Virus record (IMG/VR): IMGVR_UViG_3300045988_155520 | Span: 160,001-224,000 of that record | DNA: 64,000 nt | Direction: 5' to 3' (one strand) | Origin: a virus | In this document: one piece after another, positions 46,240 through 63,114 of the stretch | How positions within the stretch are numbered: position 1 is the first letter of the stretch | Layout: the number at the start of each line of letters is the position of its first letter | Notes under the pieces: generated by a model | The model's database searches: none | What the model saw: the letters and a program-made list of their open reading frames with translations, nothing else | What the model was told of the DNA's origin: nothing | Program-made: the position numbers and the translations under genes

Positions 46240-46270
46240 TCCTTCGTGTGTGCGTATATATAATATTATA
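46240..46270 (-). repeat. Alternating purine-pyrimidine element, copy E (inverted orientation)
   Basis: TCCTTCGTGTGTGCGTATATATAATATTATA. 18 nt of perfect R/Y alternation at 46245..46262. Confidence 0.8.
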
Positions 46271-46398
46271 ACAATAAAGTAAATTACGCTATTAGTTCAT
46301 TTATTTGCGTTCTAATACGTTTAATTAAAGAAATACTGTAATTATAGGTTTGTTTGAATAAAACCGCTTAAAAGTGAAATAAACCATATATAAACAAT

Positions 46399-46429
46399 AA
46401 AGGTAGTACCCTAAATTGATACTACCTTT
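46399..46429 (-). terminator. Rho-independent terminator
   Basis: AAAGGTAGTA-N11-TACTACCTTT. Confidence 0.75.
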
Positions 46430-46436
46430 CAAGTAT

Positions 46437-47015
46437 TTACTTTGTCAACATATCCCACAACATTTTTAGGTCGTGCGTTTTACCTATTTGCACAATGTTC
46501 TGTAGTTTATATGTAACAACCTTCGTTTGCTCCTCCATTTCAAGTCCTGCCTCCGTTTGTTTTGCATTGTCTTTTTTAGGTGCGGTATAAATCCAACTTT
46601 CAATGTCCGCACGTGTTGTGTCGTCTGTGACCACTTTGCCGTCTAATACAAAGACGTTTTCAAAAGTGGTTTTGTCTGAAGGGCGGTAATTCATTGTTAA
46701 ATAAAATTGTTCACTATCTTTGTCAGACTGAAGAATATAAGGGTACATACCTTCTACAAATTTCATTCCTTTTCGGGGTGCTGCTTTGTAGTCAGTATCA
46801 AGTCCCTTCTTTTCCAAAGTAGCGTTTACACTATTTACATAACTACCAAAACGGCAATTTGTTATTAGTGTCATTTTCTCTACCCTTCCCACGAAAGGAC
46901 AACTTTTACCTCCTCTAAATTTTGGTTCCGACTTTACAACCATTGCAGCACCAAACTTTGTGCTAATAGTCTTAACTAAATTGTAAACGCTTTCGATGTT
47001 TGTTGTATTATTCAT
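46437..47015 (-). CDS. Hypothetical protein (192 aa)
   Basis: ORF track. Confidence 0.7.
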   Translation of the reverse strand: MNNTTNIESVYNLVKTISTKFGAAMVVKSEPKFRGGKSCPFVGRVEKMTLITNCRFGSYVNSVNATLEKKGLDTDYKAAPRKGMKFVEGMYPYILQSDKDSEQFYLTMNYRPSDKTTFENVFVLDGKVVTDDTTRADIESWIYTAPKKDNAKQTEAGLEMEEQTKVVTYKLQNIVQIGKTHDLKMLWDMLTK

Positions 47016-47030
47016 AATTCAATGATAATT

Positions 47031-47071
47031 AATTTAACGGACATTTTATTTAGGTAGTCTGTTGTTATACC
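47031..47071 (-). promoter_or_regulatory. Class III conserved leader, copy 2
   Basis: AATTTAACGGACATTTTATTTAGGTAGTCTGTTGTTATACC. Confidence 0.45.
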
Positions 47072-47092
47072 TTTTGTTATTGATTGACATTG

Positions 47093-47100
47093 CAAAGATA
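47093..47100 (-). promoter_or_regulatory. -7 box
   Basis: Sense TATCTTTG, about 78 nt upstream of ATG 47015. Confidence 0.6.
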
Positions 47101-47173
47101 GGCAATTAATTTGAGTTATGCAAATAAAATAAAGTATTTAACATTATTTTAACAATAAAAACTACTCTTTGTT

Positions 47174-47395
47174 TTAATATCTATTGTGTCCATAATTCTT
47201 TTCCACGTAATGTTCACCGATTTTATTATAGATGTCTTCAATGTGGATAAGTATTAGACACACGAAATAGACACCTAAAAGAATAAACCACGCTGAAATA
47301 TTTTGACAGCCACTAAGAAGTAAGTAAGCGTTTACAATATACATTAATATTGTTGACAAACATACCAAGCCATATTGTATAAAAATTTTATTCAT
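47174..47395 (-). CDS. Small membrane protein (73 aa)
   Basis: ORF track; two hydrophobic spans. Confidence 0.6.
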   Translation of the reverse strand: MNKIFIQYGLVCLSTILMYIVNAYLLLSGCQNISAWFILLGVYFVCLILIHIEDIYNKIGEHYVEKNYGHNRY

Positions 47396-47410
47396 AATTC
47401 AATATCTTTA

Positions 47411-47453
47411 AATTTAACCAACTCTTTAATTAGGGTGGTCGGTTGTTTAACCC
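47411..47453 (-). promoter_or_regulatory. Class III conserved leader, copy 3 (no -7 box of its own)
   Basis: AATTTAACCAACTCTTTAATTAGGGTGGTCGGTTGTTTAACCC. Confidence 0.45.
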
Positions 47454-47457
47454 TTTG

Positions 47458-47601
47458 TTATTTATTTATCAAATAGACACCTAAAAACATAAAGCAATAT
47501 GAAATCATTTTCCAATCACTCAAAGTTGAGTAAGTGTGTGCAACATGAAGTAATATTATTAACAATAATATTAAACCAATCAGTATTATATTTCTTTTCA
47601 T
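47458..47601 (-). CDS. Small membrane peptide (47 aa), partial paralog of 47174..47395
   Basis: Below the track cutoff. My translation: MKRNIILIGLILLLIILLHVAHTYSTLSDWKMISYCFMFLGVYLINK. Shares the DNA block AAATAGACACCTAAAA with the neighbouring gene. Confidence 0.45.
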   Translation of the reverse strand: MKRNIILIGLILLLIILLHVAHTYSTLSDWKMISYCFMFLGVYLINK

Positions 47602-47627
47602 AATTCAATGTTTTTAAAAAATTTTGT

Positions 47628-47639
47628 GGGACTATTCTT
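47628..47639 (-). promoter_or_regulatory. Class II leader element (degenerate)
   Basis: GGGACTATTCTT within TTGTGGGACTATTCTTATTTG. Confidence 0.4.
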
Positions 47640-47654
47640 ATTTGATTGATGTTG

Positions 47655-47662
47655 CAAAGTTA
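47655..47662 (-). promoter_or_regulatory. -7 box
   Basis: Sense TAACTTTG, about 54 nt upstream of ATG 47601. Confidence 0.55.
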
Positions 47663-47768
47663 AGCAATTTATTTCATTCCACAAAATTATTATAGTTAAT
47701 TAAAGTTAACGCACGTATTTTACTTGTACTTATATAAGTCAGTGTTTGGATATTGATTTGGTTTATAT

Positions 47769-47800
47769 GTCTTATACGTGTGTATATATAATATATATAT
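47769..47800 (-). repeat. Alternating purine-pyrimidine element, copy F (degenerate, inverted orientation)
   Basis: GTCTTATACGTGTGTATATATAATATATATAT. R/Y alternation at 47773..47790. Confidence 0.6.
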
Positions 47801-47811
47801 AATATAATAAC

Positions 47812-47843
47812 AAAGGGACAGCAATATAAATTACTATCCCTTT
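47812..47843 (-). terminator. Rho-independent terminator
   Basis: AAAGGGA-N18-TCCCTTT. Confidence 0.6.
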
Positions 47844-47870
47844 TATACAAGTTATCTATGTGTTTGTTTA

Positions 47871-48182
47871 TTAATACTCTTGTTCCTCAAAGTAGTCAAT
47901 AATCTCATCAATATTATCATTAATGGTTAACATAACATCGCCTGCTGTACCGCTAATTACATTTCCGTTTCTGTCATATTTAAAGAAACTATCGTATGGG
48001 TTAAACTTTCCGCTTGCGAGTTTGCGTGCAATTTCAAATGGTGGGTAGTCTGCAAAATGATTATCAAAGTCGCTCATTGCATACCATTTGTTTGGTGACT
48101 CTACAGCATCCCAATACTCTTCGGCATATTGAAATTTCTCTACTGGTGATAAAGTTTCCCACTTTTCATATAAATTTTCCAT
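47871..48182 (-). CDS. Hypothetical protein (103 aa), paralog pair with 48296..48604
   Basis: MENLYEKWETLSPVEKFQYAEEYW versus MERLYRIWKTLSPIDKFFYAQEYW. Confidence 0.7.
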   Translation of the reverse strand: MENLYEKWETLSPVEKFQYAEEYWDAVESPNKWYAMSDFDNHFADYPPFEIARKLASGKFNPYDSFFKYDRNGNVISGTAGDVMLTINDNIDEIIDYFEEQEY

Positions 48183-48295
48183 ATCTATATTTTACTTTTT
48201 ATTATGTATTTATTTGCTTTAAAAGTTGATTTAATCTTATATAATTATCATACACAATCTATTTGTACTTAATTAAGTATAGATGTAATAATAAT

Positions 48296-48604
48296 TTATA
48301 ATTCGTTTGCGTTATATTCTATAATGTTATCAATATCGGAATTAATATCCTTCATGACATCTTCTGCGTTTCCGCTAACTAAAAGATGATGTTCATTGTA
48401 TCTAAAGAAACTATCTCTTATATCAAACTCTCTTGGTTGTATTATGCTTAAAACATCAATAGGTTTGTAACCTTTTAACTTTGTATCTATTTCATTCATT
48501 CCATACCACATTTTTGGTGAGTTAACACTCTTCCAATACTCTTGTGCGTAAAAGAATTTATCTATAGGTGATAATGTCTTCCAAATTCTATATAAACGTT
48601 CCAT
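48296..48604 (-). CDS. Hypothetical protein (102 aa), paralog of 47871..48182
   Basis: ORF track plus paralogy. Confidence 0.7.
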   Translation of the reverse strand: MERLYRIWKTLSPIDKFFYAQEYWKSVNSPKMWYGMNEIDTKLKGYKPIDVLSIIQPREFDIRDSFFRYNEHHLLVSGNAEDVMKDINSDIDNIIEYNANEL

Positions 48605-48675
48605 ATATTATTAATTGTATATTTTATCTATTCTATTTAATAAATATGTTTATTTAGAATAAAAATAACTCCCTA

Positions 48676-48939
48676 TTAATAGAGAGTTATCTTCTTTATT
48701 TCAATTTTACTATACTCATCGCTATCTATTACATTAATATAAATTGCGTGTTCATTCTCATCTACAAAAATGTCGTCTATAGGAAACTCGTTTTCAAAGT
48801 AAGACATATCTTCTTTGATAAGTTCCTTCATTTTCTTTTTAGCGTCTTCCTCGTTGCTATACGCTGCAATAGTAGCATAGTATGTTTCTCCACACATTTG
48901 TGTTTCCTGTGTAACGATAAAAATATTCTTTCCTTCCAT
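48676..48939 (-). CDS. Hypothetical protein (87 aa)
   Basis: ORF track. Weak similarity to 48978..49256 and 45836..46078 (..EEDAKKKMKE.. pattern). Confidence 0.6.
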   Translation of the reverse strand: MEGKNIFIVTQETQMCGETYYATIAAYSNEEDAKKKMKELIKEDMSYFENEFPIDDIFVDENEHAIYINVIDSDEYSKIEIKKITLY

Positions 48940-48977
48940 AATTATTCTTTGTTTTTATTTGTTAATAAATTTATCTG

Positions 48978-49256
48978 TTACTTTTCCCACTTATCAAGTA
49001 TTGTTTCGGTAATTCTCAATGTTGTGTGAACACTATTCTGAACTTCTGAAATGTGCATTATATCATCACTCTTTGTAATTATATAATCATTTTTATTCAT
49101 TTTGGAATATTCACTCTCGTAAATAGTTTCAAATGTTTCCTTCATTGCTTGTTTAGCACTTCTTTCACTACTAAATGTGCCAAGTACTAATACATCATTA
49201 GTAAACTTAACTTTTTCCTCCAACGTTAAAACGTACACTTTCTTAATTTGTTTCAT
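48978..49256 (-). CDS. Hypothetical protein (92 aa)
   Basis: ORF track. Confidence 0.6.
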   Translation of the reverse strand: MKQIKKVYVLTLEEKVKFTNDVLVLGTFSSERSAKQAMKETFETIYESEYSKMNKNDYIITKSDDIMHISEVQNSVHTTLRITETILDKWEK

Positions 49257-49286
49257 AATTCTTATTTGTTTTCTGATTTACATTTG

Positions 49287-49294
49287 CAAAGTTA
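49287..49294 (-). promoter_or_regulatory. -7 box
   Basis: Sense TAACTTTG, about 31 nt upstream of ATG 49256. Confidence 0.55.
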
Positions 49295-49364
49295 AGGATA
49301 ATAATTGATATTACCAAATTATATTTGACTGAATATGTATTATTCTTTTTCATAACCCTATATA

Positions 49365-49949
49365 TTAACTGAAATAAAGTAAATCAAAGAAGAATGTAAT
49401 CAAATCTTCCTTCTTCATATCTTTAATCTCAATCTTTATTTTATCATCTTCTTTCTCTCCCAATCGGACAAAATATAATTCTGTAGGTTTATTTACCAAA
49501 CTGAAATAACGTCCGCTTAATACACTTATATCGTCCGTGTGTTTAATTAATTCTTTTGTAAACTTGAAGATAATACGTTTAACATCGTCCTCCGTGTACT
49601 TATCATATCCTATAAAGAAAGATAAACTACACATGATACTATTTTTGGTTTTCTCGTCCAATTCGTGTGTAATCTCTTTAATTGCAATATTATTCCTAAA
49701 GGACCAACCATATAACCGAGCAAATACATACTCATTGTAATTCTCTCTTGCAATGACACGATTGTATTTATAATCATAATCAAAGCATATAGCAATCATA
49801 TTCCTATCTTTATCTGAAACATAAAAGCGTTTCATATTGTAGGCAAGTTTAATTACATTTACTTTGTAATTAACGTTCTCCAAAAATCCTTCAAAGTTAT
49901 TGTCTTTAATAACTTTATCCAAGATAGAATTTAAATTAGGACTTGTCAT
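49365..49949 (-). CDS. Hypothetical protein (194 aa)
   Basis: ORF track. Confidence 0.7.
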   Translation of the reverse strand: MTSPNLNSILDKVIKDNNFEGFLENVNYKVNVIKLAYNMKRFYVSDKDRNMIAICFDYDYKYNRVIARENYNEYVFARLYGWSFRNNIAIKEITHELDEKTKNSIMCSLSFFIGYDKYTEDDVKRIIFKFTKELIKHTDDISVLSGRYFSLVNKPTELYFVRLGEKEDDKIKIEIKDMKKEDLITFFFDLLYFS

Positions 49950-49974
49950 AATTACTTGTTTTTATTTGTTCTGT

Positions 49975-49986
49975 AGGACTATTCCT
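49975..49986 (-). promoter_or_regulatory. Class II leader element (degenerate)
   Basis: AGGACTATTCCT within CTGTAGGACTATTCCTTTATTGTTT. Confidence 0.4.
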
Positions 49987-50002
49987 TTATTGTTTACGTA
50001 TG

Positions 50003-50010
50003 CAAAGGTA
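50003..50010 (-). promoter_or_regulatory. -7 box
   Basis: Sense TACCTTTG, about 54 nt upstream of ATG 49949. Confidence 0.55.
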
Positions 50011-50058
50011 AGTAATTTATTTCAATTAACCAAATTATTTATGTTAATAAAAACAAAA

Positions 50059-50091
50059 AACCATAACTACTTATCTCAAGCGGTTATGGTT
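50059..50091 (-). terminator. Rho-independent terminator
   Basis: AACCATAAC-N15-GTTATGGTT. Confidence 0.7.
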
Positions 50092-50143
50092 TGACTAAAC
50101 AATTTAATAACTAAATTAATATTAACTACAAAACTTATCTATA

Positions 50144-50398
50144 CTAATCTATATTTGAGATTGAATGCCAGCCATTTTCTGTTTGTTTCCACGCAACTTC
50201 GAACTTTTCCTTCTTATCTCCAAAAGCAAGTTTAAGCACTGATACATCATTTCCAACGTCCGTTAGTGTTATCTCTGTTGCAAGTCCTCCTAACGTTTCA
50301 TTCACTCGTTCAGAAAGGATTTCTCGCTTTCTGAACTTTGCAGGTTTCCAATTCTTTAATAAGTTGGACTTTATTACATCTCTAAATGTATTACTCAT
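50144..50398 (-). CDS. Hypothetical protein (84 aa)
   Basis: ORF track. Confidence 0.6.
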   Translation of the reverse strand: MSNTFRDVIKSNLLKNWKPAKFRKREILSERVNETLGGLATEITLTDVGNDVSVLKLAFGDKKEKFEVAWKQTENGWHSISNID

Positions 50399-50409
50399 AA
50401 CCTTATATC

Positions 50410-50955
50410 TTACAAGTGAAAATTTGGTTTAATACGCTTATATGTATTCTCGTTTGGACACTTGTTACTTGATACAACAACGTCCGTTGCCCATGAGCTG
50501 ATAAATTTCAGTTCCCCTTCGTTAGGGTTGTAATCGTGGCACTTATCATAACTCAACTTGGTAAGGATAGGTAGTGGGTGCACAATCATATCCTTAACAT
50601 TTGGACAATCTTCAATGTCGACAAATTCCTTCTTTGTCTTATTGATAAAGTAACGGTACTCATTTGCTTTCAAGTCCTTTACATTCTCGTCAGTATTATT
50701 GATACGTGCAATATCCCAATGGTTATATTTTCCGTCTACCTCGTCCGCATAGTCACCTGCCCATACCATAGGATAACCTTTATACTTTCCGTCCTCATCA
50801 TTAATAAGAGTAGCAAAGGTATTAACAAATATATTACCCACGTAAGAATGTTCCATTAACTTGGAACCGCAGTTTAAGTCATGTGAGTGCAATGATGCAA
50901 TTACTTTTTTACTATCTTTTTTGTCAATAATGATAGGTTTAAAATATTGTCCCAT
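50410..50955 (-). CDS. Hypothetical protein (181 aa)
   Basis: ORF track. Confidence 0.7.
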   Translation of the reverse strand: MGQYFKPIIIDKKDSKKVIASLHSHDLNCGSKLMEHSYVGNIFVNTFATLINDEDGKYKGYPMVWAGDYADEVDGKYNHWDIARINNTDENVKDLKANEYRYFINKTKKEFVDIEDCPNVKDMIVHPLPILTKLSYDKCHDYNPNEGELKFISSWATDVVVSSNKCPNENTYKRIKPNFHL

Positions 50956-50992
50956 AATTCTTAAATGTTTTGTTTGTTTTTAAATGATAGTG

Positions 50993-51000
50993 CAAAGATA
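50993..51000 (-). promoter_or_regulatory. -7 box
   Basis: Sense TATCTTTG, about 38 nt upstream of ATG 50955. Confidence 0.6.
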
Positions 51001-51037
51001 AGCAATTATCATTACACTACCAAATAATTTTGTCTGT

Positions 51038-51376
51038 TTAACTTTTATTTAACATATTGCGGTACTTTGGATTTCCATAAAACAAAGCAATATGATAATA
51101 ATCAACCACACCACACATCCCTTCAATTCCCTTAATATCTTTTTCGGAAAGGTCTATTTTACGTGGATATTCCAAGATAATACTATCTTTGTCCGTCTTA
51201 GTTTCGGGAACTCCATTTACAATATTTACCTCCTCTGCAATTCCGTCTTTAAACAACATTTTGAACTCGTGTTCAGTACGTGGGTTTTTGTCATTAAAGA
51301 AAGGACCATATCCCATATTGATAAGAGTTTCGTCACAAATATAGATAGTGTCCCAATAACTTTCTAATACTTCCAT
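51038..51376 (-). CDS. Hypothetical protein (112 aa)
   Basis: ORF track. Confidence 0.65.
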   Translation of the reverse strand: MEVLESYWDTIYICDETLINMGYGPFFNDKNPRTEHEFKMLFKDGIAEEVNIVNGVPETKTDKDSIILEYPRKIDLSEKDIKGIEGMCGVVDYYHIALFYGNPKYRNMLNKS

Positions 51377-51391
51377 AATGCTTATTATTTA

Positions 51392-51688
51392 TTATAAAGA
51401 TGTTTCAAGTATAGCATTATAAACATTCATTTGACTAATACTATCGCATTTTTCGATAGATGTTTGTTCCCATTCATTCATACTATCATCTGTCATTAAG
51501 TCAACACAAATGTCATTACCAACAACAAAGGCTCTTATAACGGGATAATATTCTTTATCGCTTTCAATATAAGCCATAGCAGGAATATTCTCAACAAGTG
51601 CATATCCGTCTTCGTCAATAAAGCGCACTTCTTGTAAATCGTTATTTTTAAAAAAACGTATTACTCTTTGTTTAATTTCATTGTTCAT
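51392..51688 (-). CDS. Hypothetical protein (98 aa), paralog of 56061..56375
   Basis: RVIRFFKNNDLQEVRFIDEDGYALVENIP versus HAISLMKANDIKELTFISNEGEWLIEDVP. Confidence 0.65.
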   Translation of the reverse strand: MNNEIKQRVIRFFKNNDLQEVRFIDEDGYALVENIPAMAYIESDKEYYPVIRAFVVGNDICVDLMTDDSMNEWEQTSIEKCDSISQMNVYNAILETSL

Positions 51689-51731
51689 AATTCTTAATGT
51701 TTTTAATTTGTTTGTTATTGAAATACATCTG

Positions 51732-51739
51732 CAAATTTA
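51732..51739 (-). promoter_or_regulatory. -7 box abutting a stem-loop
   Basis: Sense TAAATTTG, about 44 nt upstream of ATG 51688. Confidence 0.5.
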
Positions 51740-51774
51740 ACAAGGAAAATTTATATATTTGGATTTTCCTTGTT
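51739..51774 (-). terminator. 12-bp stem-loop immediately upstream of the -7 box
   Basis: AACAAGGAAAAT-N12-ATTTTCCTTGTT. Confidence 0.7.
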
Positions 51775-51788
51775 AAATTATGTTTAGT

Positions 51789-52502
51789 TTAAGAATATAA
51801 TTTTTCTACAAATTCTATTACGTTTTTATAGAAGTTATAATATTTCTCACCACGTAATTTTGCAAAATCTAAAATTTCGTCCTTTGTTCCGTTGATAAAG
51901 AGCGTGGACCATTGATTATTAGAACGTGTATAAACAAAAGTGTGACCACCTTCCCAATTTTCATGACCTACATAGTAGTCAGCAGGTGACATTATTTTTG
52001 CATCACTAATAAAGCGTACAAAATCGTATATATAAGCGTCACCACAAACAATTGCATTATCTCTCACCAAGCAAGTACCTATTAAATTTGCATTGTCACA
52101 AACTTGTGCATTATCTAATAGAAGGGAATTACCATACACTTGTGCGTTATCCTTAACAATAGAACAACCTTCCATACGTGCGTTATTAAACACACGTGCG
52201 TTATCTTTAACTTTAGAATGTCCTCTTACTTGTGCATTACCAAATACCACTGCATTGCCACAAACTTGTGCAAAGCCGTCTATTATACCATTACCAAATA
52301 CCTTTGCATTGTCGTAAACTTTTCCGTCCAAGAATATCCAACAATTGCCTTCTTGTGAAAGATTATCTTCTTTCTCAATAAAACCACCTATACTACCCTT
52401 CTTGACATTTCCAAAGTCTTTAAGAGCCTCAACTCGATAAAGTTTGTGTCCGTCAAATGTATAACTTAAATCTTTTCTGATTTTATATTTCTTTGTTTCC
52501 AT
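51789..52502 (-). CDS. Left-handed-beta-helix-like repeat protein (237 aa), paralog of 61385..62119
   Basis: Hexapeptide-like repeats VFGNAQVRGHSKVKDNARVFNNARMEG... Confidence 0.7.
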   Translation of the reverse strand: METKKYKIRKDLSYTFDGHKLYRVEALKDFGNVKKGSIGGFIEKEDNLSQEGNCWIFLDGKVYDNAKVFGNGIIDGFAQVCGNAVVFGNAQVRGHSKVKDNARVFNNARMEGCSIVKDNAQVYGNSLLLDNAQVCDNANLIGTCLVRDNAIVCGDAYIYDFVRFISDAKIMSPADYYVGHENWEGGHTFVYTRSNNQWSTLFINGTKDEILDFAKLRGEKYYNFYKNVIEFVEKLYS

Positions 52503-52532
52503 AATTCTAATTTGTTTATTAATTTATGATTG

Positions 52533-52540
52533 CAAAGTTA
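52533..52540 (-). promoter_or_regulatory. -7 box
   Basis: Sense TAACTTTG, about 31 nt upstream of ATG 52502. Confidence 0.55.
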
Positions 52541-52613
52541 AATAATTAATTTCAATCTACCAAAGAAAATTACTAATTTAACATATAATTAACATTAAGT
52601 GCCTTTTGTGTAT

Positions 52614-52646
52614 TATATATAATATATTACGCATACACATGAAGGA
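52614..52646 (+). repeat. Alternating purine-pyrimidine element, copy A
   Basis: TATATATAATATATTACGCATACACATGAAGGA. Confidence 0.8.
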
Positions 52647-52761
52647 AAAAATAAACTTATTCTAAAGCGTTCTAACCGCTTATTTTAGTGTTTATCTTAT
52701 AAGTTATCAAGTTTATATATCCAAGTCGTCAGAAACGAAATAAAGTGACAATAAATAGAAA

Positions 52762-52792: not shown

Positions 52793-52825
52793 ATTAGCAT
52801 AAAAACAATTTATATTTAATAAGAT

Positions 52826-56402: not shown

Positions 56403-56765
56403 TTACTTAATTTCGAATAGTGTTGAGAGTTTCTTAAGTTCATTCTTAATCCACATAGTATCTTCCAATACGTCCTTCAATTCATAGGGTGCACCATTCT
56501 TTCCGTGTCCGTCCCAATCAAGCCAAATGTAAGTTTCATATGATACATCATAACTCTCGTCATATTCTTTGAATGTTTTATAAATTTGTTCCTTTGTAGT
56601 GTTGTCCTTAAACTCGTACTCAAAAACAATATCACGTCCTGTAGGCGACCATTTTTCAATCGAAAGTTCAACTTGTTTCTCTTTTTCGTTGATTGTCGTG
56701 CTAACCTTCCACTCTGTATCTTTTAACTTATTCTCAAAATACTTTTCAATATTAACTAAATTCAT
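56403..56765 (-). CDS. Hypothetical protein (120 aa)
   Basis: ORF track. Confidence 0.65.
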   Translation of the reverse strand: MNLVNIEKYFENKLKDTEWKVSTTINEKEKQVELSIEKWSPTGRDIVFEYEFKDNTTKEQIYKTFKEYDESYDVSYETYIWLDWDGHGKNGAPYELKDVLEDTMWIKNELKKLSTLFEIK

Positions 56766-56808
56766 AATTCTTAAATGTTTTAATTGTTAATGTTTTGAAT
56801 AACTGATG

Positions 56809-56816
56809 CAAAGGTA
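56809..56816 (-). promoter_or_regulatory. -7 box
   Basis: Sense TACCTTTG, about 44 nt upstream of ATG 56765. Confidence 0.55.
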
Positions 56817-56893
56817 CAAATAAGTTTTTTATTATGCAAGTAAAATTAAGTATTTAACATTTAATTAACATATCTATAATTTTAGATGTAAAC

Positions 56894-56936
56894 CAAAGAA
56901 GATAAGCAATTATTCTCAAACTACTTACCTTCTTTG
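56894..56936 (-). terminator. Hairpin terminator
   Basis: CAAAGAAGATAAG-N17-CTTACCTTCTTTG (1 mismatch). Confidence 0.6.
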
Positions 56937-56941
56937 TTCAC

Positions 56942-57466
56942 TTATTTTTTACAACACAACTCTTGTATCTTGTCATAAAAGTTTTTCTCAAACTTATCAA
57001 AATTATTCAAAAAGTACTCCATATCATTTATTACGTCTTGAGGATATGGATATTCAAAAATATCTATTTTGTTCCAAAAAGTGCCGTAAAATACACCTTC
57101 CTGAGAAATCATAAGATTTTTTGGATTCTCTGTGCTACCGTTTTCCACACCGATATATTTTATTCTTTCTTTCTCATCATCATCACCTATAATTGCATAA
57201 CAACTAAGAAAACCTAATTTTTCATCCCAACCATTAGCAATTGCACATAAAGTACGTGTTTTATCACTTTCCTTTAATTTACTATGTTTAAGTGTACTAA
57301 CAAGCAAAAATCTATGCTTTATCAAATGATTTGCAGTATCTATCAAATCTATAATTCTATCACCCAAAGAAAGAATTTTATCTCTCAATGAAAACATTTT
57401 CTCCTTCTGTTTGTACTCTTCACTCTGCTTGTAAGCGTTGGCAATTTCGTTTTCAAACTTAATCAT
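56942..57466 (-). CDS. Hypothetical protein (174 aa)
   Basis: ORF track. Confidence 0.7.
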   Translation of the reverse strand: MIKFENEIANAYKQSEEYKQKEKMFSLRDKILSLGDRIIDLIDTANHLIKHRFLLVSTLKHSKLKESDKTRTLCAIANGWDEKLGFLSCYAIIGDDDEKERIKYIGVENGSTENPKNLMISQEGVFYGTFWNKIDIFEYPYPQDVINDMEYFLNNFDKFEKNFYDKIQELCCKK

Positions 57467-57494
57467 AATTCTAAATTGTTTTAAATTGTTTGTT

Positions 57495-57510
57495 TCAGCA
57501 ATATTACTGA
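57495..57510. promoter_or_regulatory. Class I leader near-palindrome
   Basis: TCAGCAATATTACTGA. Confidence 0.5.
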
Positions 57511-57520
57511 TTTATGCTTG

Positions 57521-57528
57521 CAAATGTA
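57521..57528 (-). promoter_or_regulatory. -7 box
   Basis: Sense TACATTTG, about 55 nt upstream of ATG 57466. Confidence 0.55.
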
Positions 57529-57601
57529 AGGATAAAAATTCAAATACGCAAGTAAATTTCTTATTTTAACTTTTAATTAACATTTGAATGATTATAGAAG
57601 A

Positions 57602-57631
57602 TTATATAATATACACATACGCATGAATGAA
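57602..57631 (+). repeat. Alternating purine-pyrimidine element, copy D
   Basis: TTATATAATATACACATACGCATGAATGAA. R/Y alternation at 57609..57625. Confidence 0.75.
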
Positions 57632-57720
57632 TCTAATATATGCGTTTTAAGACGTTTAAATAATAGTAACCTTATATGTACCTATAAAGTTGAATATAAG
57701 CTATTAGATAACAAAAGAAA

Positions 57721-57756
57721 ACCTCATAAAGGTATTTGTATATTCCTTCATGAGGT
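57721..57756 (-). terminator. Rho-independent terminator
   Basis: ACCTCATAAAGG-N12-CCTTCATGAGGT (1 mismatch). Confidence 0.65.
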
Positions 57757-57764
57757 AACTATGT

Positions 57765-58097
57765 TTATATTTTCTTGTACACTGATATATTGATATAATT
57801 CAACACTTCATTAAATACAAAATCGCACATAGAATAAGAAAACTCATCTTCATTTAATCTCTTTTCTATTCGTGTGTTGTATGTTTCGTATTTCAAAGTA
57901 AATACGTCTTTATTTTTATCATATTGTACTTCATTTATTATGATTGTACATACACACCCTTCACCAACAACCCTTATAGAAGGGCGTGAACTTCTTACTA
58001 TGATAGTAAAATCAACTTCAAACGTATTGAATTTTTCCATACGATTTATAGCATCTTTCCTATCTTGTTCTATGTATGTCTTATATATTCCCTCCAT
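57765..58097 (-). CDS. Hypothetical protein (110 aa), paralog of 53813..54103
   Basis: ORF track plus paralogy. Confidence 0.65.
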   Translation of the reverse strand: MEGIYKTYIEQDRKDAINRMEKFNTFEVDFTIIVRSSRPSIRVVGEGCVCTIIINEVQYDKNKDVFTLKYETYNTRIEKRLNEDEFSYSMCDFVFNEVLNYINISVYKKI

Positions 58098-58172
58098 TAT
58101 TGTTTATTTTATTATGTAATACAATCATATTTACTTGTTTTATTCATTTGCAAGTATATTAACTTGTTTTAC

Positions 58173-58397
58173 TTACTTTGCTGTAATTGTTACCTTTGTA
58201 AGTTTCAACCACTGATATCCTAAAGCACTTTTACGCTTTTTATTTGCGCACGCTGCAATATTTCCAATGGTTGCACGATTGTTACTTCCTAAAGCAATTG
58301 CAGCCTCCGTGCATGAATTATAACGTGCAATTACTTTGCCGTCCTTCACTTGTGCAACGGCTACTGATTGATATTTCTTTTTCTTATTTTCTCCCAT
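58173..58397 (-). CDS. Stand-alone NUMOD/IENR-like HTH DNA-binding protein (74 aa)
   Basis: QVKDGKVIARYNSCTEAAIALGSNNRATIGNIAACANKKRKSALGYQW matches the DNA-binding module found at homing-endonuclease C-termini (from memory). Confidence 0.55.
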   Translation of the reverse strand: MGENKKKKYQSVAVAQVKDGKVIARYNSCTEAAIALGSNNRATIGNIAACANKKRKSALGYQWLKLTKVTITAK

Positions 58398-58413
58398 ATT
58401 ATTGTCCTTCCTT

Positions 58414-58608
58414 TTAATCTAACTTAATCGGAGAAATACCACAAGTTTTTAACATTTCATTTACTTTGTCCATGTTTGTTTCTCTTTCAGCACCAACTTC
58501 CTCCAAAAAATCTTGCAACGTTTGCCCGATAAATGATATACCTCCAAAAGGTGTGTTATCATCTTCTAACTTCACATTGAGATATTTGCTTACTGACTTG
58601 TTACTCAT
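58414..58608 (-). CDS. Hypothetical protein (64 aa)
   Basis: ORF track; 16 nt upstream of the HTH gene. Confidence 0.55.
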   Translation of the reverse strand: MSNKSVSKYLNVKLEDDNTPFGGISFIGQTLQDFLEEVGAERETNMDKVNEMLKTCGISPIKLD

Positions 58609-58740
58609 GACTTCTAATTTTATATATTTATTTAATTATATTCTTATATTTAGATATATTAATGTATTTATATCTTTTTATAATTGTTTATTTATTCATA
58701 TCCTCCCTTCACTTGAAAGGAGGTTATGAATATTTTGTTT

Positions 58741-59094
58741 TTAATCGGTTGTTTGAATAAAGTAATTTAAATCATCACCTTTGAAAGTAGAGAGTGCTTT
58801 ATCTCGTGCAACATAATAGAGTTCAGTGTACAATCTTGTAAGTTGCTCATTTCCTCTCTCATGTAATTCCCATGCCTTGATGTTAAGAGCCATAGTAAAC
58901 TCTGTAAAATATTTCACATCGTCCTTCCACTCTTTTACAATACGATTAAAGGTTTCCTCAATTGCCTTCTGTCCTCCCATTAATTCTGCAATTGTTAAAT
59001 CACTTGAAAATGTTGTAAAACGTTCATATCCGCTTTCAGCCATGACATTTTCAAAGTAATTTTCTGACATCATTGCTGCTTGAAATACGTTCAT
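58741..59094 (-). CDS. Hypothetical protein (117 aa)
   Basis: ORF track. Confidence 0.65.
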   Translation of the reverse strand: MNVFQAAMMSENYFENVMAESGYERFTTFSSDLTIAELMGGQKAIEETFNRIVKEWKDDVKYFTEFTMALNIKAWELHERGNEQLTRLYTELYYVARDKALSTFKGDDLNYFIQTTD

Positions 59095-59122
59095 AATTCT
59101 TATTTGTTTTAATTTGTTATAT

Positions 59123-59134
59123 GGGAATATTCCC
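59123..59134. promoter_or_regulatory. Class II leader palindrome (perfect)
   Basis: GGGAATATTCCC within ATATGGGAATATTCCCTTGTTGTTTT. Confidence 0.55.
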
Positions 59135-59155
59135 TTGTTGTTTTGAATTACGATG

Positions 59156-59163
59156 CAAAGATA
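59156..59163 (-). promoter_or_regulatory. -7 box
   Basis: Sense TATCTTTG, about 62 nt upstream of ATG 59094. Confidence 0.6.
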
Positions 59164-59250
59164 GTAATAAAAGTTGGAATGTACAAGTAAATTTTTCTTT
59201 TTAACTTGAGATTAACATTTCTATAAATTTATGTTAATTTATTTAGATAA

Positions 59251-59258
59251 TAACTTTG
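59251..59258 (+). promoter_or_regulatory. Orphan plus-strand TAnnTTTG box pointing into the non-coding region
   Basis: TAACTTTG on the plus strand, with no plus-strand ORF downstream. Confidence 0.3.
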
Positions 59259-59440
59259 CAATTGAAGTATAAATTAATAAATTAGCTATAAGGCTGTTTA
59301 TTTTCGTTATAAGGGACTTTATACTACAAAGTGGTATATTTACTCATAAAACAAAAAATAAAGCGTCAAAACGCAAATATTTAAATTATTTCAGTTGGAA
59401 TGATGATAGTTTTATTATTTTCAAATTTTCTGCAAAAGTT

Positions 59441-59473
59441 TCCTTCGTGCGTGCGCATGCGTATATATTATAT
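59441..59473 (-). repeat. Alternating purine-pyrimidine element, copy G (inverted orientation, longest)
   Basis: TCCTTCGTGCGTGCGCATGCGTATATATTATAT. 23 nt of perfect R/Y alternation at 59446..59468. Confidence 0.8.
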
Positions 59474-59562
59474 CTAGTAATAATAATATAATACTAGTAA
59501 TTAATATATAATTAAAATATAATATCTAGTATATAATAAATTAATTATATATTCTAGTATTA
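59468..59562. repeat. Four AT-rich CTAGTA-containing iteron-like units
   Basis: CTAG at 59474, 59494, 59526 and 59554, each within (A/T)T(A/C)TCTAGTA(A/T)TAAT-like units. Confidence 0.6.
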
Positions 59563-59779
59563 ATTTATAATATTATAAAAAGAAAAAAATATAAAAAAAG
59601 AAAAAGTTAAAACTTTCAGAGTGCAATAGAAAAGTCATTGTTTGGAAAGTTTTTATTTTTAATAAAAATCATATTCCAACTTTAGATTTAAAAATTACCG
59701 TGGCCAGGCCATGAAAAACGGAAAAAATTGAAGGAATTTTCACTTTTCAGAATTTTTTGAGTAGAGTAGAAAAAGAATA

Positions 59780-59818
59780 AACGGCTCAGATTAGCGTTTA
59801 TTTGCTCTCTAAGCCGTT
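59780..59818 (-). terminator. Hairpin terminator
   Basis: AACGGCT-N25-AGCCGTT. Confidence 0.45.
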
Positions 59819-59865
59819 ATAACCACATTTGCAGTATAATTGTACTCTAAATCAAAAACAAGCCG

Positions 59866-60522
59866 TTAGAACGCAACAAATAGGGTTTTATCGTAAATCA
59901 TTTCTGTTGAGTAACATTGTACAGCCAAACGGCACATACGCAGTCCAAAGTTTTCAGGAGAACCAAGTTCACCTTCGTTCCATAGTTCGTTTATCTGCTT
60001 TAAGACAATAATTTTACCATAAGTTTTGTTTAACCTTTCCAAAGTGTTGTACAATCTTCTGCAGGCGTTTTCGTCATAGCAAAGATACCTTCTTTCTCCA
60101 AACTCATTAATATCTTTGTTTTCACGATGCAAACTAACTTCATAATACATTAGCGGTCTTAAATTAGGAATAAACTTGTTTAGTTTATCAAACGAAGGAC
60201 ATGGTTTTTTATATAACCCCACTTTGTAATAAATTTTACCAATTCTTTCCTCTATGCGTTCTACTTTTACCAAACAGCCATAATTTTCCTTATAACTATC
60301 TACTATTTCAAGAACACTGAAACGTCCTACCTTATAGTGGTGAAGTATTGCAGAATTATTATTAAAAGATATTTCGGTAATTTCTAACTTTATCTTTGCT
60401 GTAAAAGTTAAAATAAGTTCTGAAAAATTATTTGTTCTATCTTTCAATAACTTGTCAACCGCAGTAGAAATTGTTTCGTTTAAAAACTCTTTCAAATCAT
60501 CTAAATAGTGAATTTCTTTCAT
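59866..60522 (-). CDS. Hypothetical protein (218 aa)
   Basis: ORF track. Confidence 0.7.
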   Translation of the reverse strand: MKEIHYLDDLKEFLNETISTAVDKLLKDRTNNFSELILTFTAKIKLEITEISFNNNSAILHHYKVGRFSVLEIVDSYKENYGCLVKVERIEERIGKIYYKVGLYKKPCPSFDKLNKFIPNLRPLMYYEVSLHRENKDINEFGERRYLCYDENACRRLYNTLERLNKTYGKIIVLKQINELWNEGELGSPENFGLRMCRLAVQCYSTEMIYDKTLFVAF

Positions 60523-60549
60523 AATTCTATTTGTTTTAAATTGTTTGTT

Positions 60550-60565
60550 TCAGCACTATTACTGA
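60550..60565. promoter_or_regulatory. Class I leader near-palindrome
   Basis: TCAGCACTATTACTGA. Confidence 0.5.
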
Positions 60566-60575
60566 TTTATATTTG

Positions 60576-60583
60576 CAAAGATA
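60576..60583 (-). promoter_or_regulatory. -7 box
   Basis: Sense TATCTTTG, about 54 nt upstream of ATG 60522. Confidence 0.6.
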
Positions 60584-60660
60584 AGCATAAATTTTCAAAC
60601 CACCAAATTTATAACGTTAAATGATGTTAAACAAAAACTTTAATTGAATTAAATAAAAAA

Positions 60661-60695
60661 GTAGTGTGCTAACTATATAAGTAAAAACACACTAC
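60661..60695 (-). terminator. Rho-independent terminator
   Basis: GTAGTGTG-N19-CACACTAC. Confidence 0.6.
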
Positions 60696-60721
60696 CATAA
60701 ACAAATGTATAGAATTATGAA

Positions 60722-61276
60722 TTAATAATCAAGTTCAATATATCCGTCAGAGATAAGTTCATGTAAAGAAACCTCGTCTAAAAGTTTATTAATCAAAAAC
60801 TCTCTCAATACCTTCTTAAAAGATACTTTTGAATCACTATCAGTATCAAAGGCAAAATCATACCAAACATCAGCATTGAAATATGTATCAACAAGTTCCA
60901 ACAACTCACTATTTGTTTTCTTTTCTAACAAGTTTTTATAACCTTTAGAAAGAAACAGAAAATATTTGAGGATAAGTTCCAAATCTTCATTTTTTGTATT
61001 AGTCGTTGAAATCTGAATTTTATTATATGTTCGAGAAATTTTATCTATTGTCAAACTTATAAGAATAATATCATCATTAACATTTAAATACCAACTATCC
61101 GCATTATAATCAATTCTCGTATTTGGTACACCAAGTATGCGAATAATATCATCAATAGGTAAATTAACGGTCCTATTATACTTTTCCTTAAATTTGATAT
61201 CACTATAATCATCAAATTCCTCATCATACAAAGCATTAATAATTGAATTAACCTTTGGAAAATCAATCTGTAGCAT
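60722..61276 (-). CDS. Hypothetical protein (184 aa), paralog of 63264..63815
   Basis: ADSWYLNVNDDIILISLT / SATWYLQIHEGIYTLTFS, plus shared C-terminal halves. Confidence 0.7.
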   Translation of the reverse strand: MLQIDFPKVNSIINALYDEEFDDYSDIKFKEKYNRTVNLPIDDIIRILGVPNTRIDYNADSWYLNVNDDIILISLTIDKISRTYNKIQISTTNTKNEDLELILKYFLFLSKGYKNLLEKKTNSELLELVDTYFNADVWYDFAFDTDSDSKVSFKKVLREFLINKLLDEVSLHELISDGYIELDY

Positions 61277-61305
61277 AACTCTTAAATGTTTTAGTTTGTT
61301 TTTGT

Positions 61306-61317
61306 GGGACTATTCCC
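61306..61317. promoter_or_regulatory. Class II leader element
   Basis: GGGACTATTCCC within TTGTGGGACTATTCCCTTGTTGTTT. Confidence 0.5.
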
Positions 61318-61333
61318 TTGTTGTTTATGTTTG

Positions 61334-61341
61334 CAAAGGTA
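61334..61341 (-). promoter_or_regulatory. -7 box overlapping a stem-loop
   Basis: Sense TACCTTTG, about 58 nt upstream of ATG 61276. Confidence 0.5.
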
Positions 61342-61375
61342 CGGATAAAAAGTCATATAAACAAATTATCCGTAC
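61339..61375 (-). terminator. 9-bp stem-loop overlapping the -7 box
   Basis: GTACGGATA-N19-TATCCGTAC. Confidence 0.65.
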
Positions 61376-61384
61376 TAAATAATG

Positions 61385-62119
61385 TTAACAACCTTTACAA
61401 CTTTCAATGTCGTTGTATGTTTCCTCTACATACTTAACAATTCGTTCATAGTTACGACCGCTTAACTCACTATCTTCATAAGCCTTCTTTATTAGTTCCT
61501 CGCTTGTTCCATAGAAACAACCTACTTTCCACATATTATTAGGACGTGTGTACGTGAAATAACGTCCGCTACTCCATATGTTCTTTCCAACATAATAATC
61601 AGACATTTCCTTAATTTCAACATTACCACATATCACTGCTTTACCTTTGACAGAAGTTTTAATAACTGAATTACCAAAAACAAGTACATTATCGGTAATT
61701 AAAGCATGACTATAAATCATGGCATTCTCATAAACTTGTGCATAATCATGAAGACTTGCATTTTCAAATATTTGGGCATTATCTGATAAAATAACATTAT
61801 CAAAAATCTTTGCATTGCCAAATACTTTTACATTGTCATAAACGGTCACATCATCAAAGATTTTTGCATTGTCATATATTTGTGCATAACCTGTAACAGT
61901 AGCGTTTCCACAAACACGTGCGTCACCATATACCATTGCCTCATGATAAATCCAACAATTACCTTTTTGAGAAAGGTTTTCCTCCTTCTCAACCCAACCG
62001 CCTAAGTCACCCTTATGAAGATTTCTAAAATCTCGTAATAGTTCAATACGATAGAGTTTGTGACCATTATATGACATTGTAAGGTCTTCTCTCAACTTAA
62101 ACTTCTTTTCTGTTTTCAT
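61385..62119 (-). CDS. Left-handed-beta-helix-like repeat protein (244 aa from ATG 62119; track ORF extends to 62167), paralog of 51789..52502
   Basis: MKTEKKFKLREDLTMSYNGHKLYRIELL versus METKKYKIRKDLSYTFDGHKLYRVEAL. ATG 62119 has the conserved GAATTATG context. Confidence 0.7.
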   Translation of the reverse strand: MKTEKKFKLREDLTMSYNGHKLYRIELLRDFRNLHKGDLGGWVEKEENLSQKGNCWIYHEAMVYGDARVCGNATVTGYAQIYDNAKIFDDVTVYDNVKVFGNAKIFDNVILSDNAQIFENASLHDYAQVYENAMIYSHALITDNVLVFGNSVIKTSVKGKAVICGNVEIKEMSDYYVGKNIWSSGRYFTYTRPNNMWKVGCFYGTSEELIKKAYEDSELSGRNYERIVKYVEETYNDIESCKGC

Positions 62120-62164
62120 AATTCTATTTGTTTTAATTGTTTGTTTACTATTGAAATACGATTG

Positions 62165-62172
62165 CAAAATTA
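62165..62172 (-). promoter_or_regulatory. -7 box
   Basis: Sense TAATTTTG, about 46 nt upstream of ATG 62119. Confidence 0.5.
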
Positions 62173-62300
62173 ATCATAATAATTGAAACTACCAAAAATA
62201 TTATATTAATAAAAGTTAACTACATACTAAAAATAAAAGTGACATAACCTTCATATAGGAAAGTTACGCCACTATAAACAAATTATCGAACTATGAACAT

Positions 62301-62654
62301 TTAAATTTCGTCCTCCTTCTCATCAAATTCCTTTTTAAGACTCTCTTCAATAGCATTGATAACTTTATTGTTAATCGGTAATTCCGAAGATAGATACAAT
62401 GTCTTAAACCTTCCATTATCACCATTAACAAACATAGCCTTGAATATTTGTCCGTTATAATTCAAATACCAATCAGTATGTTTACTGAAAGTATGTACGG
62501 GTCTTCCTAATTGATTAACAATATCCCTACGAATTAAGTCCACATCAACAACGGACATATCAATAAGATTTAATTCATAGTCAATCTTATCAAACTCTTC
62601 CTCTGTATATGATTTCAAGTCCTCCAAATGTTTTTTTAAAAACGTCTGTTTCAT
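62301..62654 (-). CDS. Hypothetical protein (117 aa from ATG 62654; track ORF extends to 62696), N-terminal-domain paralog of the 60722/63264 family
   Basis: ATG 62654 has the GAATTATG context. HTDWYLNYNGQIFKAMF. Confidence 0.65.
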   Translation of the reverse strand: MKQTFLKKHLEDLKSYTEEEFDKIDYELNLIDMSVVDVDLIRRDIVNQLGRPVHTFSKHTDWYLNYNGQIFKAMFVNGDNGRFKTLYLSSELPINNKVINAIEESLKKEFDEKEDEI

Positions 62655-62679
62655 AATTCTAAATGTTTTAGTTGTTTTA

Positions 62680-62976
62680 TTAAAAGTTATTGTCAAGATA
62701 TTTTAACAACTCACGAAAAGTATCACCAGTAAAAGAATCTGTACTGATAGGGGCATTATCTTCCTCTAAATCATCATAATAACAAAAATTGTAATATAAT
62801 ATATCATTTTCAATGTAAAGACTTTGTAGTTCAATTTCTACATCATCTTCATTAATATAAAAATCATTTTCTATTGTTATCTTTCCTCCTTTGTTCTCAA
62901 CAAATTCTTTAATAGCATCGACAATAGACTTTTTAATATCATCATATTGCTTGATAAGTTCTTTAATTTTATCCAT
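62680..62976 (-). CDS. Hypothetical acidic protein (98 aa)
   Basis: ORF track. Confidence 0.65.
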   Translation of the reverse strand: MDKIKELIKQYDDIKKSIVDAIKEFVENKGGKITIENDFYINEDDVEIELQSLYIENDILYYNFCYYDDLEEDNAPISTDSFTGDTFRELLKYLDNNF

Positions 62977-63000
62977 AATTTTAATATTGATTTATGACTG

Positions 63001-63008
63001 CAAAGATA
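63001..63008 (-). promoter_or_regulatory. -7 box
   Basis: Sense TATCTTTG, about 25 nt upstream of ATG 62976. Confidence 0.6.
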
Positions 63009-63084
63009 GATAATAAATCTCAAACAGCCAAAAGAAATTAAATGTTTAACATATAATTAACAATTCAAAAACAAACGCTATATT

Positions 63085-63114
63085 GATATAATATATACGC
63101 ATACGAATGAAAGA
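63085..63114 (+). repeat. Alternating purine-pyrimidine element, copy C
   Basis: GATATAATATATACGCATACGAATGAAAGA. Confidence 0.7.

Follow-up and report, generated by a model that had tools for sequence, protein, structure and literature searches.

Why does a short tract of alternating purines and pyrimidines recur in seven intergenic spacers of one phage gene array? We addressed this question for a stretch of 64,000 nucleotides (nt), namely positions 160,001 to 224,000 of the IMG/VR virus record IMGVR_UViG_3300045988_155520, referred to as the window throughout. Genes for a portal protein, a large terminase, a helicase and further phage functions identify the window as phage DNA, and it is part of a jumbo phage of about 210–250 kb from human oral metagenomes. 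The recurring sequence, here called the RY element (R, purine; Y, pyrimidine), is restricted to an array of co-oriented small ORFan genes on the minus strand (45000–64000), which terminator hairpins and promoters of the Bacteroidota type split into units. As a tentative answer, we propose that the RY element forms the distal upstream block of terminator/promoter cassettes and acts through its shape, in either orientation; the cassettes resemble the promoter-early stem-loop (PeSL) modules of T4-type phages.

An earlier sequence-only reading had listed seven copies of the element in both orientations, and all of them are present. Three lie on the minus strand and thus in gene direction, namely copy 46240 (46238–46270, reading TATATA, RY tract and GAAGGAA; RY run 46245–46262), copy 47769 (47767–47798; run 47773–47790) and copy 59441 (59438–59476; run 59446–59468). 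The other four lie on the plus strand, opposite to gene direction: copy 52614 (52615–52648; run 52628–52641), copy 55655 (55655–55689; run 55669–55682), copy 57602 (57602–57633; run 57609–57625) and copy 63085 (63083–63117; run 63091–63105). From the first to the last copy, the uninterrupted runs measure 18, 18, 14, 14, 17, 23 and 15 nt, which bears out the range of 14–23 nt given before as well as the claim that the run of copy 59441, which is also the most CpG-rich, is the longest. With regard to anatomy, a (TA)-rich block is joined to a (YR)n core and a loosely conserved, purine-rich AAGGAA, with AATGAA, AAAGAA and AAGA as variants. The core consists of the pyrimidine-purine dinucleotides TA, CG, CA and TG, contains CpG/CpA, and is 10–26 nt long in the window and its relatives; in the cleanest copies, including copy 55655, it reads (TACGCA)2TG. 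The consensus originally drawn up was roughly right, except that copy 47769 is degenerate at the GAAGGA end (TAAGACA).

This accumulation clearly exceeds what base composition would produce. Between 45 and 64 kb, we counted seven RY runs that span 14 nt or more and contain at least four G/C, compared to a mean of 0.79 (standard deviation 0.94, maximum 6) in 300 dinucleotide-preserving shuffles. A profile built from the seven copies recovered exactly those seven in the whole window (E-value of at most 1), and the core pattern TACGCATACRCATG with up to two mismatches had five matches versus 0.36 expected. A small peptide starting at the ATG of CATGAAGGA was considered as well and rejected; the three copies in inverted orientation and some of the orthologs have ACG in place of this ATG, and the short reading frames bear no relation to one another.

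The spacers that harbor the element share a common layout. In the direction of the coding strand, the stop codon is followed by a terminator hairpin, often a GCGTTYTAA-type motif, the RY element, two TTAAC words, a -33 box, a -7 box, the leader and the ATG, with the words GTTAA-N6-GTTAA, TTTG and TAnnTTTGCA in the spacer and AGAATT at the end of the leader. The element had been placed between the terminator of one unit and the TTAAC repeat of the next, and every copy indeed lies between a terminator hairpin and a TTAAC-N5-7-TTAAC repeat. For copy 46240, a TTAAC-N5-TTAAC pair (46212–46226) separates the element from the promoter with the -7 box TATCTTTG (46155–46162), and the terminator hairpin of the upstream unit is found at 46399–46429. 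The corresponding pair, -7 box and hairpin are located at 47695–47709, 47655–47662 (TAACTTTG) and 47812–47843 for copy 47769, at 52578–52593 (GTTAATTATATGTTAA on the gene strand, 53 nt from the -7 box), 52533–52540 (TAACTTTG) and 52762–52792 for copy 52614, and at 55607–55622, 55562–55569 (TATTTTTG) and 55786–55826 for copy 55655. For the remaining three copies, the pair and the -7 box were found at 57566–57581 and 57521–57528 (TACATTTG), at 59201–59216 and 59156–59163 (TATCTTTG), and at 63046–63061 and 63001–63008 (TATCTTTG). Here, terminator-like hairpins followed by a T run were read from the sequence at 57721–57756 (ACCTCATGAAGG..CCTTTATGAGGT), 59781–59817 (AACGGCTTAG..CTGAGCCGTT) and 63212–63249 (AAGCGGTGTAT..ATATACCGCTT). 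All -7 boxes and hairpins are on the minus strand.

Both accompanying motifs are enriched. TTAAC-N5-7-TTAAC occurs 14 times in the window versus 1.7 expected, with 12 of the 14 in the array, including a further example at 56854–56869. The repeat is found in either orientation and, in most cassettes of the window and its relatives, lies at a rigid distance of 53 nt from the -7 box (more rarely 48, 64 or 74 nt). Its probable role is that of a phased activator or UP-like site serving each unit's primary promoter. The motif GCGTTYTRA is present nine times in the window versus 1.2 expected. Its reported association with most RY copies holds for six of the seven, copy 47769 being without it, whereas a fixed orientation is true for only five. 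It reads GCGTTCTAA at 46307–46315 and 52667–52675 and GCGTTTTAA at 55709–55717, 57642–57650 and 63136–63144, all on the plus strand, and GCGTTTTGA at 59366–59374 on the minus strand, in the orientation opposite to the others.

Next, we asked whether this arrangement is shared by relatives, whose loci were fetched via a flanking protein of 399 amino acids (aa), a 173-aa protein of the array and exact-protein look-ups. No close relative of the phage was found among the deposited phage genomes of INPHARED. Terminase relatives at 99–100% identity are encoded on IMG/VR contigs of up to 211–222 kb, and contigs of 240–312 kb from human oral metagenomes carry the same genes. As pointers to the host, terminase relatives in genomes were limited to a 49% match in a Paludibacteraceae metagenome-assembled genome (MAG) and a 56% match in a probably mis-binned Mycoplasmatota MAG. 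The relatives yielded 142 profile matches with 69 distinct variants, belonging to about ten families that point away from the promoter and about five that point toward it. In relatives that are 70–90% identical, the element is kept at every orthologous locus, in the same orientation and at a regular position; its absence from equivalent junctions, which had been named as the outcome that would speak against it, was not what we found. Another member of the lineage, a 163-kb contig, has copies as well. Outside the array, the profile detected no copy in 0.75 Mb of other loci of the lineage and its distant relatives, among them terminase neighbourhoods, beyond the sequences from unrelated contigs that the pattern scan had already returned. 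Those 14 singletons in unrelated viral contigs were rejected; their number is about what chance would give, the TA-rich block is missing from them, and an identical flanking context recurs in eight. In the distant relatives L070–L073 synteny is absent, and the conservation is seen within this lineage. Likewise, the cassette architecture is absent from L100 and L101, two unrelated phages with a homolog of an array gene.

The position of the element is most regular with respect to the promoter. Its promoter-proximal edge lies 73–85 nt upstream of the -7 box in five copies, about 105 nt in copy 47769 and 274 nt in copy 59441, in agreement with the 70–300 bp stated previously. In nearly all of the approximately 15 families, the core is found 73–111 nt upstream of the -7 box in both orientations. 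The exception is the 59441 family with 282–323 nt, and even at this locus the distance is 89 nt in three relatives without the 209-nt insertion beside the core. The distance to the stop codon, by contrast, varies from 72 to 389 nt. Consequently, the element is tied to the promoter and not to the terminator. It is confined to long spacers of at least 287 nt. A helical phasing between element and TTAAC repeat was considered and discarded: the distances in the window (11, 20, 21, 21 and 32 nt) are suggestive, but across families they spread continuously from 15 to 36 nt.

The downstream promoters are of the host type. TTTG at -33 and TAnnTTTG at -7 constitute the pattern of the Bacteroidota primary sigma factor, and TTTG-N17-23-TAnnTTTG has 19 matches on the minus strand of the window, 15 of them in the array. 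Because the promoters show this pattern, the array genes are probably early genes read by the host RNA polymerase. A sigma-70-type candidate, TTGAYA-N17-TAnnAT upstream of GCGTT, was rejected, since it is present only in the spacers of copies 52614 and 55655 and their orthologs and is at chance level in AT-rich DNA. The RY element itself contains no -33/-7 motif and does not match the Bacteroidota core promoter, and both orientations occur at the same distance from the genuine promoter, which lies at least 73 nt downstream. This agrees with the initial argument that the element is not a core promoter.

It is also highly improbable that the element serves as a separate promoter or start site, used by another polymerase or sigma factor for antisense or extra transcripts, or as an origin-related site. 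Its AT-rich block does contain TATAAT-like words, but about two thirds of the families would then fire away from the genes and into the terminator, and the variable length of the core is incompatible with a two-part promoter. Furthermore, genes outside the array have no copy upstream of them, sigma-70-like matches are about as frequent in the region as chance predicts (130 versus 125 expected), and we found no RNA family or conserved hairpin; in the window as a whole, neither a tRNA nor an Rfam match at the gathering threshold is present. A link to replication could be seen in copy 59441, which adjoins AT-rich tandem repeats with the otherwise avoided words CTAG and GGCC in an origin-like manner, but such a repeat-rich neighbourhood exists at this one copy only. 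The spacer in question (59095–59865) is a gene-free region of 771 nt with tandem repeats of about 20–28 nt (59463–59577), long A/T runs and the strongest RY copy. It holds four of the seven CTAG sites and two of the six GGCC sites of the window (CATGGCCTGGCCACGG at about 59700), and both the repeat number and a 209-nt segment vary among relatives. Altogether, this spacer looks origin-like or otherwise special.

What is conserved in the element can be judged from its variation at orthologous loci. At the 59441 locus, the variants TATGCGCGCGCACG, TACGCATGCGCACGCACG and TATACGCATGCGCACGCACGTG differ in letters and length, whereas the alternation is kept. Among the variable columns of the orthologs, those with transitions only and those with a transversion stand at 21:4 in the core versus 108:195 in the 70-nt flanks (Fisher p = 5e-6); transitions leave the alternation intact. 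The bias is observed at positions that are G/C in the window as reference (12:2 in the core, 45:53 in the flanks) as well as at A/T positions (9:2 and 63:140), and CpG positions in the flanks are without it (11:11 in a second alignment scheme). In addition, the tetranucleotide CGCG is found only nine times in about 0.9 Mb of loci from close relatives, compared to about 378 expected, and eight of these nine sites are inside RY elements; the ninth lies in a short RY run beside a TTAAC repeat. The transition bias, the alternation kept over core lengths of 10–26 nt and the survival of CGCG indicate a structural constraint on the element, in line with the structural role that had been among those favoured from the outset. 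Judging from these patterns of variation, what seems to be preserved in the element is the shape of its DNA and not the exact letters.

The scarcity of CGCG belongs to an extreme avoidance of four-base palindromes. In the window, GATC is absent (157 expected), as are CCGG (26) and CGCG (21), while CTAG occurs seven times (87) and GGCC six times (20). The approximately 0.9 Mb of relatives (L001–L017, L026, L033, L035, L041, L056–L069 and L074–L096) contain a single GATC versus 2164 expected and no CCGG versus 330. This extreme avoidance suggests a strong restriction pressure in the host.

Could the element simply be a by-product of spacer duplication? It might represent a functionless compound microsatellite of the type (TA)n(CR)n that arose with a duplicated spacer, is maintained by slippage and hitch-hikes with the promoter modules. 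We consider this rather unlikely. Four of the spacers are indeed paralogous, with a mean column identity of 65% over their whole length, but the RY block is among their few conserved islands, and this block-wise conservation leaves it recognisable where the surrounding spacer has diverged. Changes in its length resemble dinucleotide slippage, the element is restricted to one lineage and several cassettes work without it; nevertheless, core columns vary less than flank columns (21% versus 30%, p = 0.03), elements of both orientations keep a regular spacing to the -7 box, and the persistence at every orthologous locus as well as the retention of CGCG in a lineage otherwise purged of it would not be expected of a neutral repeat.

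In the shape-based reading that we tentatively favour, the element would act in cis on the adjacent promoter via a physical property of (YR)n DNA and not via base-specific contacts. DNA of this type untwists and kinks readily, and Z-DNA could form in the best copies. One option is that the element absorbs negative supercoils behind polymerases leaving the promoter; alternatively, it might provide a flexible hinge at which upstream DNA wraps or loops. In both cases, promoter firing would be tuned and the promoter would be decoupled from the upstream unit.

To estimate the propensity for Z-DNA, we combined dinucleotide energies with a junction cost of 5 kcal/mol (PMC3024258) for one segment with two junctions, a simple estimate that covers the B-Z transition by itself. 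The best predicted Z-forming site of the window is 59446–59461 in copy 59441, with a critical superhelical density of about -0.049. Cruciform potential, including hairpins of the kind found in N4-type promoters, is absent: single-strand DNA folding z-scores range from +0.73 to -2.19, the copies share no hairpin, and neither a stable extruding inverted repeat nor a dyad symmetry is consistent among them.

Several points weigh against a shape-based function. First, the sites at 46245, 57610 and 55669 have predicted critical densities of -0.061 to -0.063, no better than many coding segments, and the remaining three copies are outside the 25 best Z sites; moreover, the neighbouring AT-rich DNA would compete with the B-Z transition by melting. 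The label "Z-DNA-prone" is consequently justified for the 59446 family and marginal for the rest. Second, the transition bias weakens to 16:7 versus 189:278 with another alignment extraction, which makes its direction robust across both schemes and its size alignment-dependent, and it could partly stem from interconversion of CpG, TpG and CpA or from dinucleotide slippage. Third, the alternation is broken in some copies and orthologs, for example TACGAATACACATG, TACGCAGACACATG and, in the window, TACGCATACGAATG of copy 63085. Fourth, most families retain the directional flank AAGGAA and the preferred start TATACGCA, an indication that bases are to some extent read specifically. Fifth, about five spacers of the window have a terminator and a TTAAC repeat and no RY element, and the element is therefore not required for a working cassette. 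Finally, its mode of action is purely what we infer, and the simple picture of an insulator is weakened because co-directional units should largely cancel each other's supercoils.

The conserved flank and start are among the reasons why an ordinary protein-binding site is nearly as likely as a shape-based block. It is possible that a sequence-specific protein, either an early or middle regulator of the phage or a host factor, binds the element as an upstream activator or repressor. The position at -75 to -110, beside the rigid TTAAC pair, is typical of upstream factor sites, the core preferentially starts with TA-TACGCA and is flanked by the directional AAGGAA in most families, the cleanest copies carry the tandem hexamer (TACGCA)2, and in four copies the partner motif GCGTTYTAA lies 15–25 nt away. 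On the other hand, the stretch between the TA block and AAGGAA has no fixed length, ranging from 10 to 26 nt, and several families are without AAGGAA (e.g. ..CGTAagattaaa, ..TATAagaca and ..CACAatatatt). There is no dyad symmetry, the hexamer repeat is present in only some copies, and orthologs at one locus exchange letters while keeping the alternation, as in TATGCGCGCGCACG versus TACGCATGCGCACGCACG. Likewise, no DNA-binding domain is on record for any gene of the array.

A more specific version of the shape-based reading is that the RY elements are natural flipons, i.e. short CpG-containing (YR)n tracts that selection would keep about 80–110 bp upstream of early promoters because transcription-driven negative supercoiling flips or unwinds them. 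An alternating tract of at least about 12 bp with CG, CA or TG steps, as described for flipons, is found in all seven copies and is broken in a few relatives. We regard this version as unlikely. If it were true, it would provide a feedback on promoter re-firing and an insulation of neighbouring units, and would explain the tolerance of CGCG in a genome purged of this word. The window further encodes a 359-aa protein of the thymidylate synthase family (14921–16000, minus strand), a DNMK-type deoxynucleoside monophosphate kinase (27905–28795, plus strand) and an N6/N4 DNA methylase (39339–40595, plus strand). With these three genes, the virion DNA might contain a modified pyrimidine. Such a base would be relevant to Z propensity and, in the case of flipons, could lower the B-Z threshold further.

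As a further possibility, the element had been suggested to act as a recombination hotspot for cassette shuffling. Exchange between phages could then be stimulated by Z-DNA, or the element could simply offer a shared patch of homology. Relatives show a mosaic array, and three clusters of homology breakpoints (55667, 55699–55706 and 59446) touch an element, including a 209-nt indel abutting the 59446 core and a hybrid spacer in L078. However, these are only about three of some 57 breakpoint clusters, most of which fall at the promoter, leader or start codon, as do the recurrent ones (e.g. 46075, 47376–47413, 49309, 51382, 52482–52525, 54404, 57463 and 58127–58174). The ends of high-scoring segment pairs are also imprecise. 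We judge a hotspot function to be improbable.

The mosaicism itself affects whole cassettes, which are present or absent among relatives that are 85–97% identical, with junctions in promoter and leader sequences in the manner of PeSL-like shuffling. For example, the two-gene unit at 54501–55532 is missing in several relatives (54404–55699 compared with L083, L088, L091, L092 and L096), and about 3.4 kb are inserted at 58160–58174 in most relatives. The protein encoded at 54891–55532 has no relative in IMG/VR, which marks it as the product of a strain-variable gene. Two genes related to mobile elements were observed in relatives and are absent from the window, namely a TnpB/IS605-type gene at the edge of the array in L076 (1–951) and a resolvase-family gene inside the array of L099 (20213–20777).

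Beyond the spacers, all genes between 45 and 64 kb are on the minus strand and encode products of 50–290 aa. The array continues for about 8 kb past the end of the window to a divergent point and thereby reaches a total of about 27 kb. No Pfam match is on record for the array genes except faint hexapeptide-repeat matches and one GP88. In the 5'-leaders, downstream of the -7 box and ahead of the start codon, hairpins form three recurring classes (AACCGACCACCC..TCGGTT, CAGTAATATTGCTG and GGGAATAGTCCC), and their sites fall into three groups (46079–46140, 47016–47075 and 47396–47470; 53348–53400, 57467–57510 and 60523–60565; 49950–49990, 59095–59135 and 61277–61320); they may be shared translational or stability signals. 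A beta-solenoid/hexapeptide-repeat gene (61385–62167), whose family has several paralogs along the array, contains a 54-nt tandem repeat in 2.5 copies (61756–61887). Elsewhere, the window encodes a 687-aa protein with a Thg1 domain (tRNA-His guanylyltransferase, a 3'-5' polymerase; 41393–43456, plus strand), which is unusual in a phage, and a BspA-type leucine-rich-repeat protein (32382–33206, plus strand).

If shape is what is read, the RY element would represent a rare natural case of prokaryotic regulation by an alternating purine-pyrimidine tract. Irrespective of the mechanism, our analysis defines the upstream architecture of the early promoters of an uncultured oral Bacteroidota jumbo phage, comprising the -7 box, the -33 box, the TTAAC pair at 53 nt and the RY element. 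Knowing this layout helps to annotate such phages and to design expression parts for Bacteroidota.

Among known systems, the closest resemblance is to the PeSL cassettes of T4-type phages. In the abstracts of Arbiol et al. 2010 (PMC2839356) and Comeau et al. 2014 (PMC4122927), these cassettes are described as a terminator combined with an early promoter; they are situated among the ORFans of hyperplastic regions, where indel junctions coincide with them. Similarly, each of the seven spacers in the window contains a terminator hairpin and a TTTG/TAnnTTTG promoter, to which the RY element adds an extra block. The genes on either side of the modules are small and mostly ORFans, and relatives vary in gene content. 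When close relatives are compared, the junctions of indels and replacements map to the modules, where they coincide with the promoter, the leader or the start codon. In contrast, the promoter is of the Bacteroidota -33/-7 type and not sigma-70-like, no T4-like affiliation is established for this phage, and the TTAAC and RY blocks are not part of the PeSL definitions in the abstracts of PMC2839356 and PMC4122927. Most breakpoints are also found at the promoter and leader and not at the RY block. With another promoter type, another lineage and two extra upstream blocks, the cassette described here is not a strict member of the PeSL family. It shows that PeSL-like cassettes have a counterpart in a very different phage-host system.

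A second comparison concerns alternating tracts near eukaryotic and viral promoters that are regarded as Z-DNA elements. Nordheim and Rich reportedly described Z-DNA-forming segments in the simian virus 40 (SV40) enhancer in 1983, and Rahmouni and Wells are said to have shown in 1989, using engineered tracts, that (CG)n upstream of an active promoter flips in vivo in E. coli. Like such tracts, the RY element is an alternating purine-pyrimidine sequence with CG, CA and TG steps, lies upstream of a promoter independently of orientation, and occupies a site where transcription-driven negative supercoiling accumulates. Tracts of this kind near promoters have been given the name flipons in the abstract of PMC10474125. 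The elements analysed here differ in being short and TA-rich, and only one family is predicted to flip at the physiological average superhelical density. In bacteria and phages, we know of no established natural regulatory Z-element.

Layered upstream regions of strong bacterial promoters offer a third parallel. The rrnB P1 promoter has an UP element and Fis sites upstream, and the GalR loop has an HU-bound apex. The spacers of the array are layered in a comparable way, with the proximal TTAAC pair at a fixed distance and a distal element at about -80 to -110 that is tolerated in either orientation. Unlike those regions, the RY element contains no matching binding consensus, and no cognate protein is known. 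Finally, compound dinucleotide microsatellites and phase-variable (TA)n promoter spacers are a known type of repeat, which the RY element resembles in being built of dinucleotide units with a length that is polymorphic among strains. Phase-variable (TA)n spacers, however, lie between promoter hexamers, whereas the RY element is outside of them, short and interrupted; and in contrast to dinucleotide microsatellites, it is accompanied by a conserved non-repeat flank and keeps a fixed position relative to the promoter.

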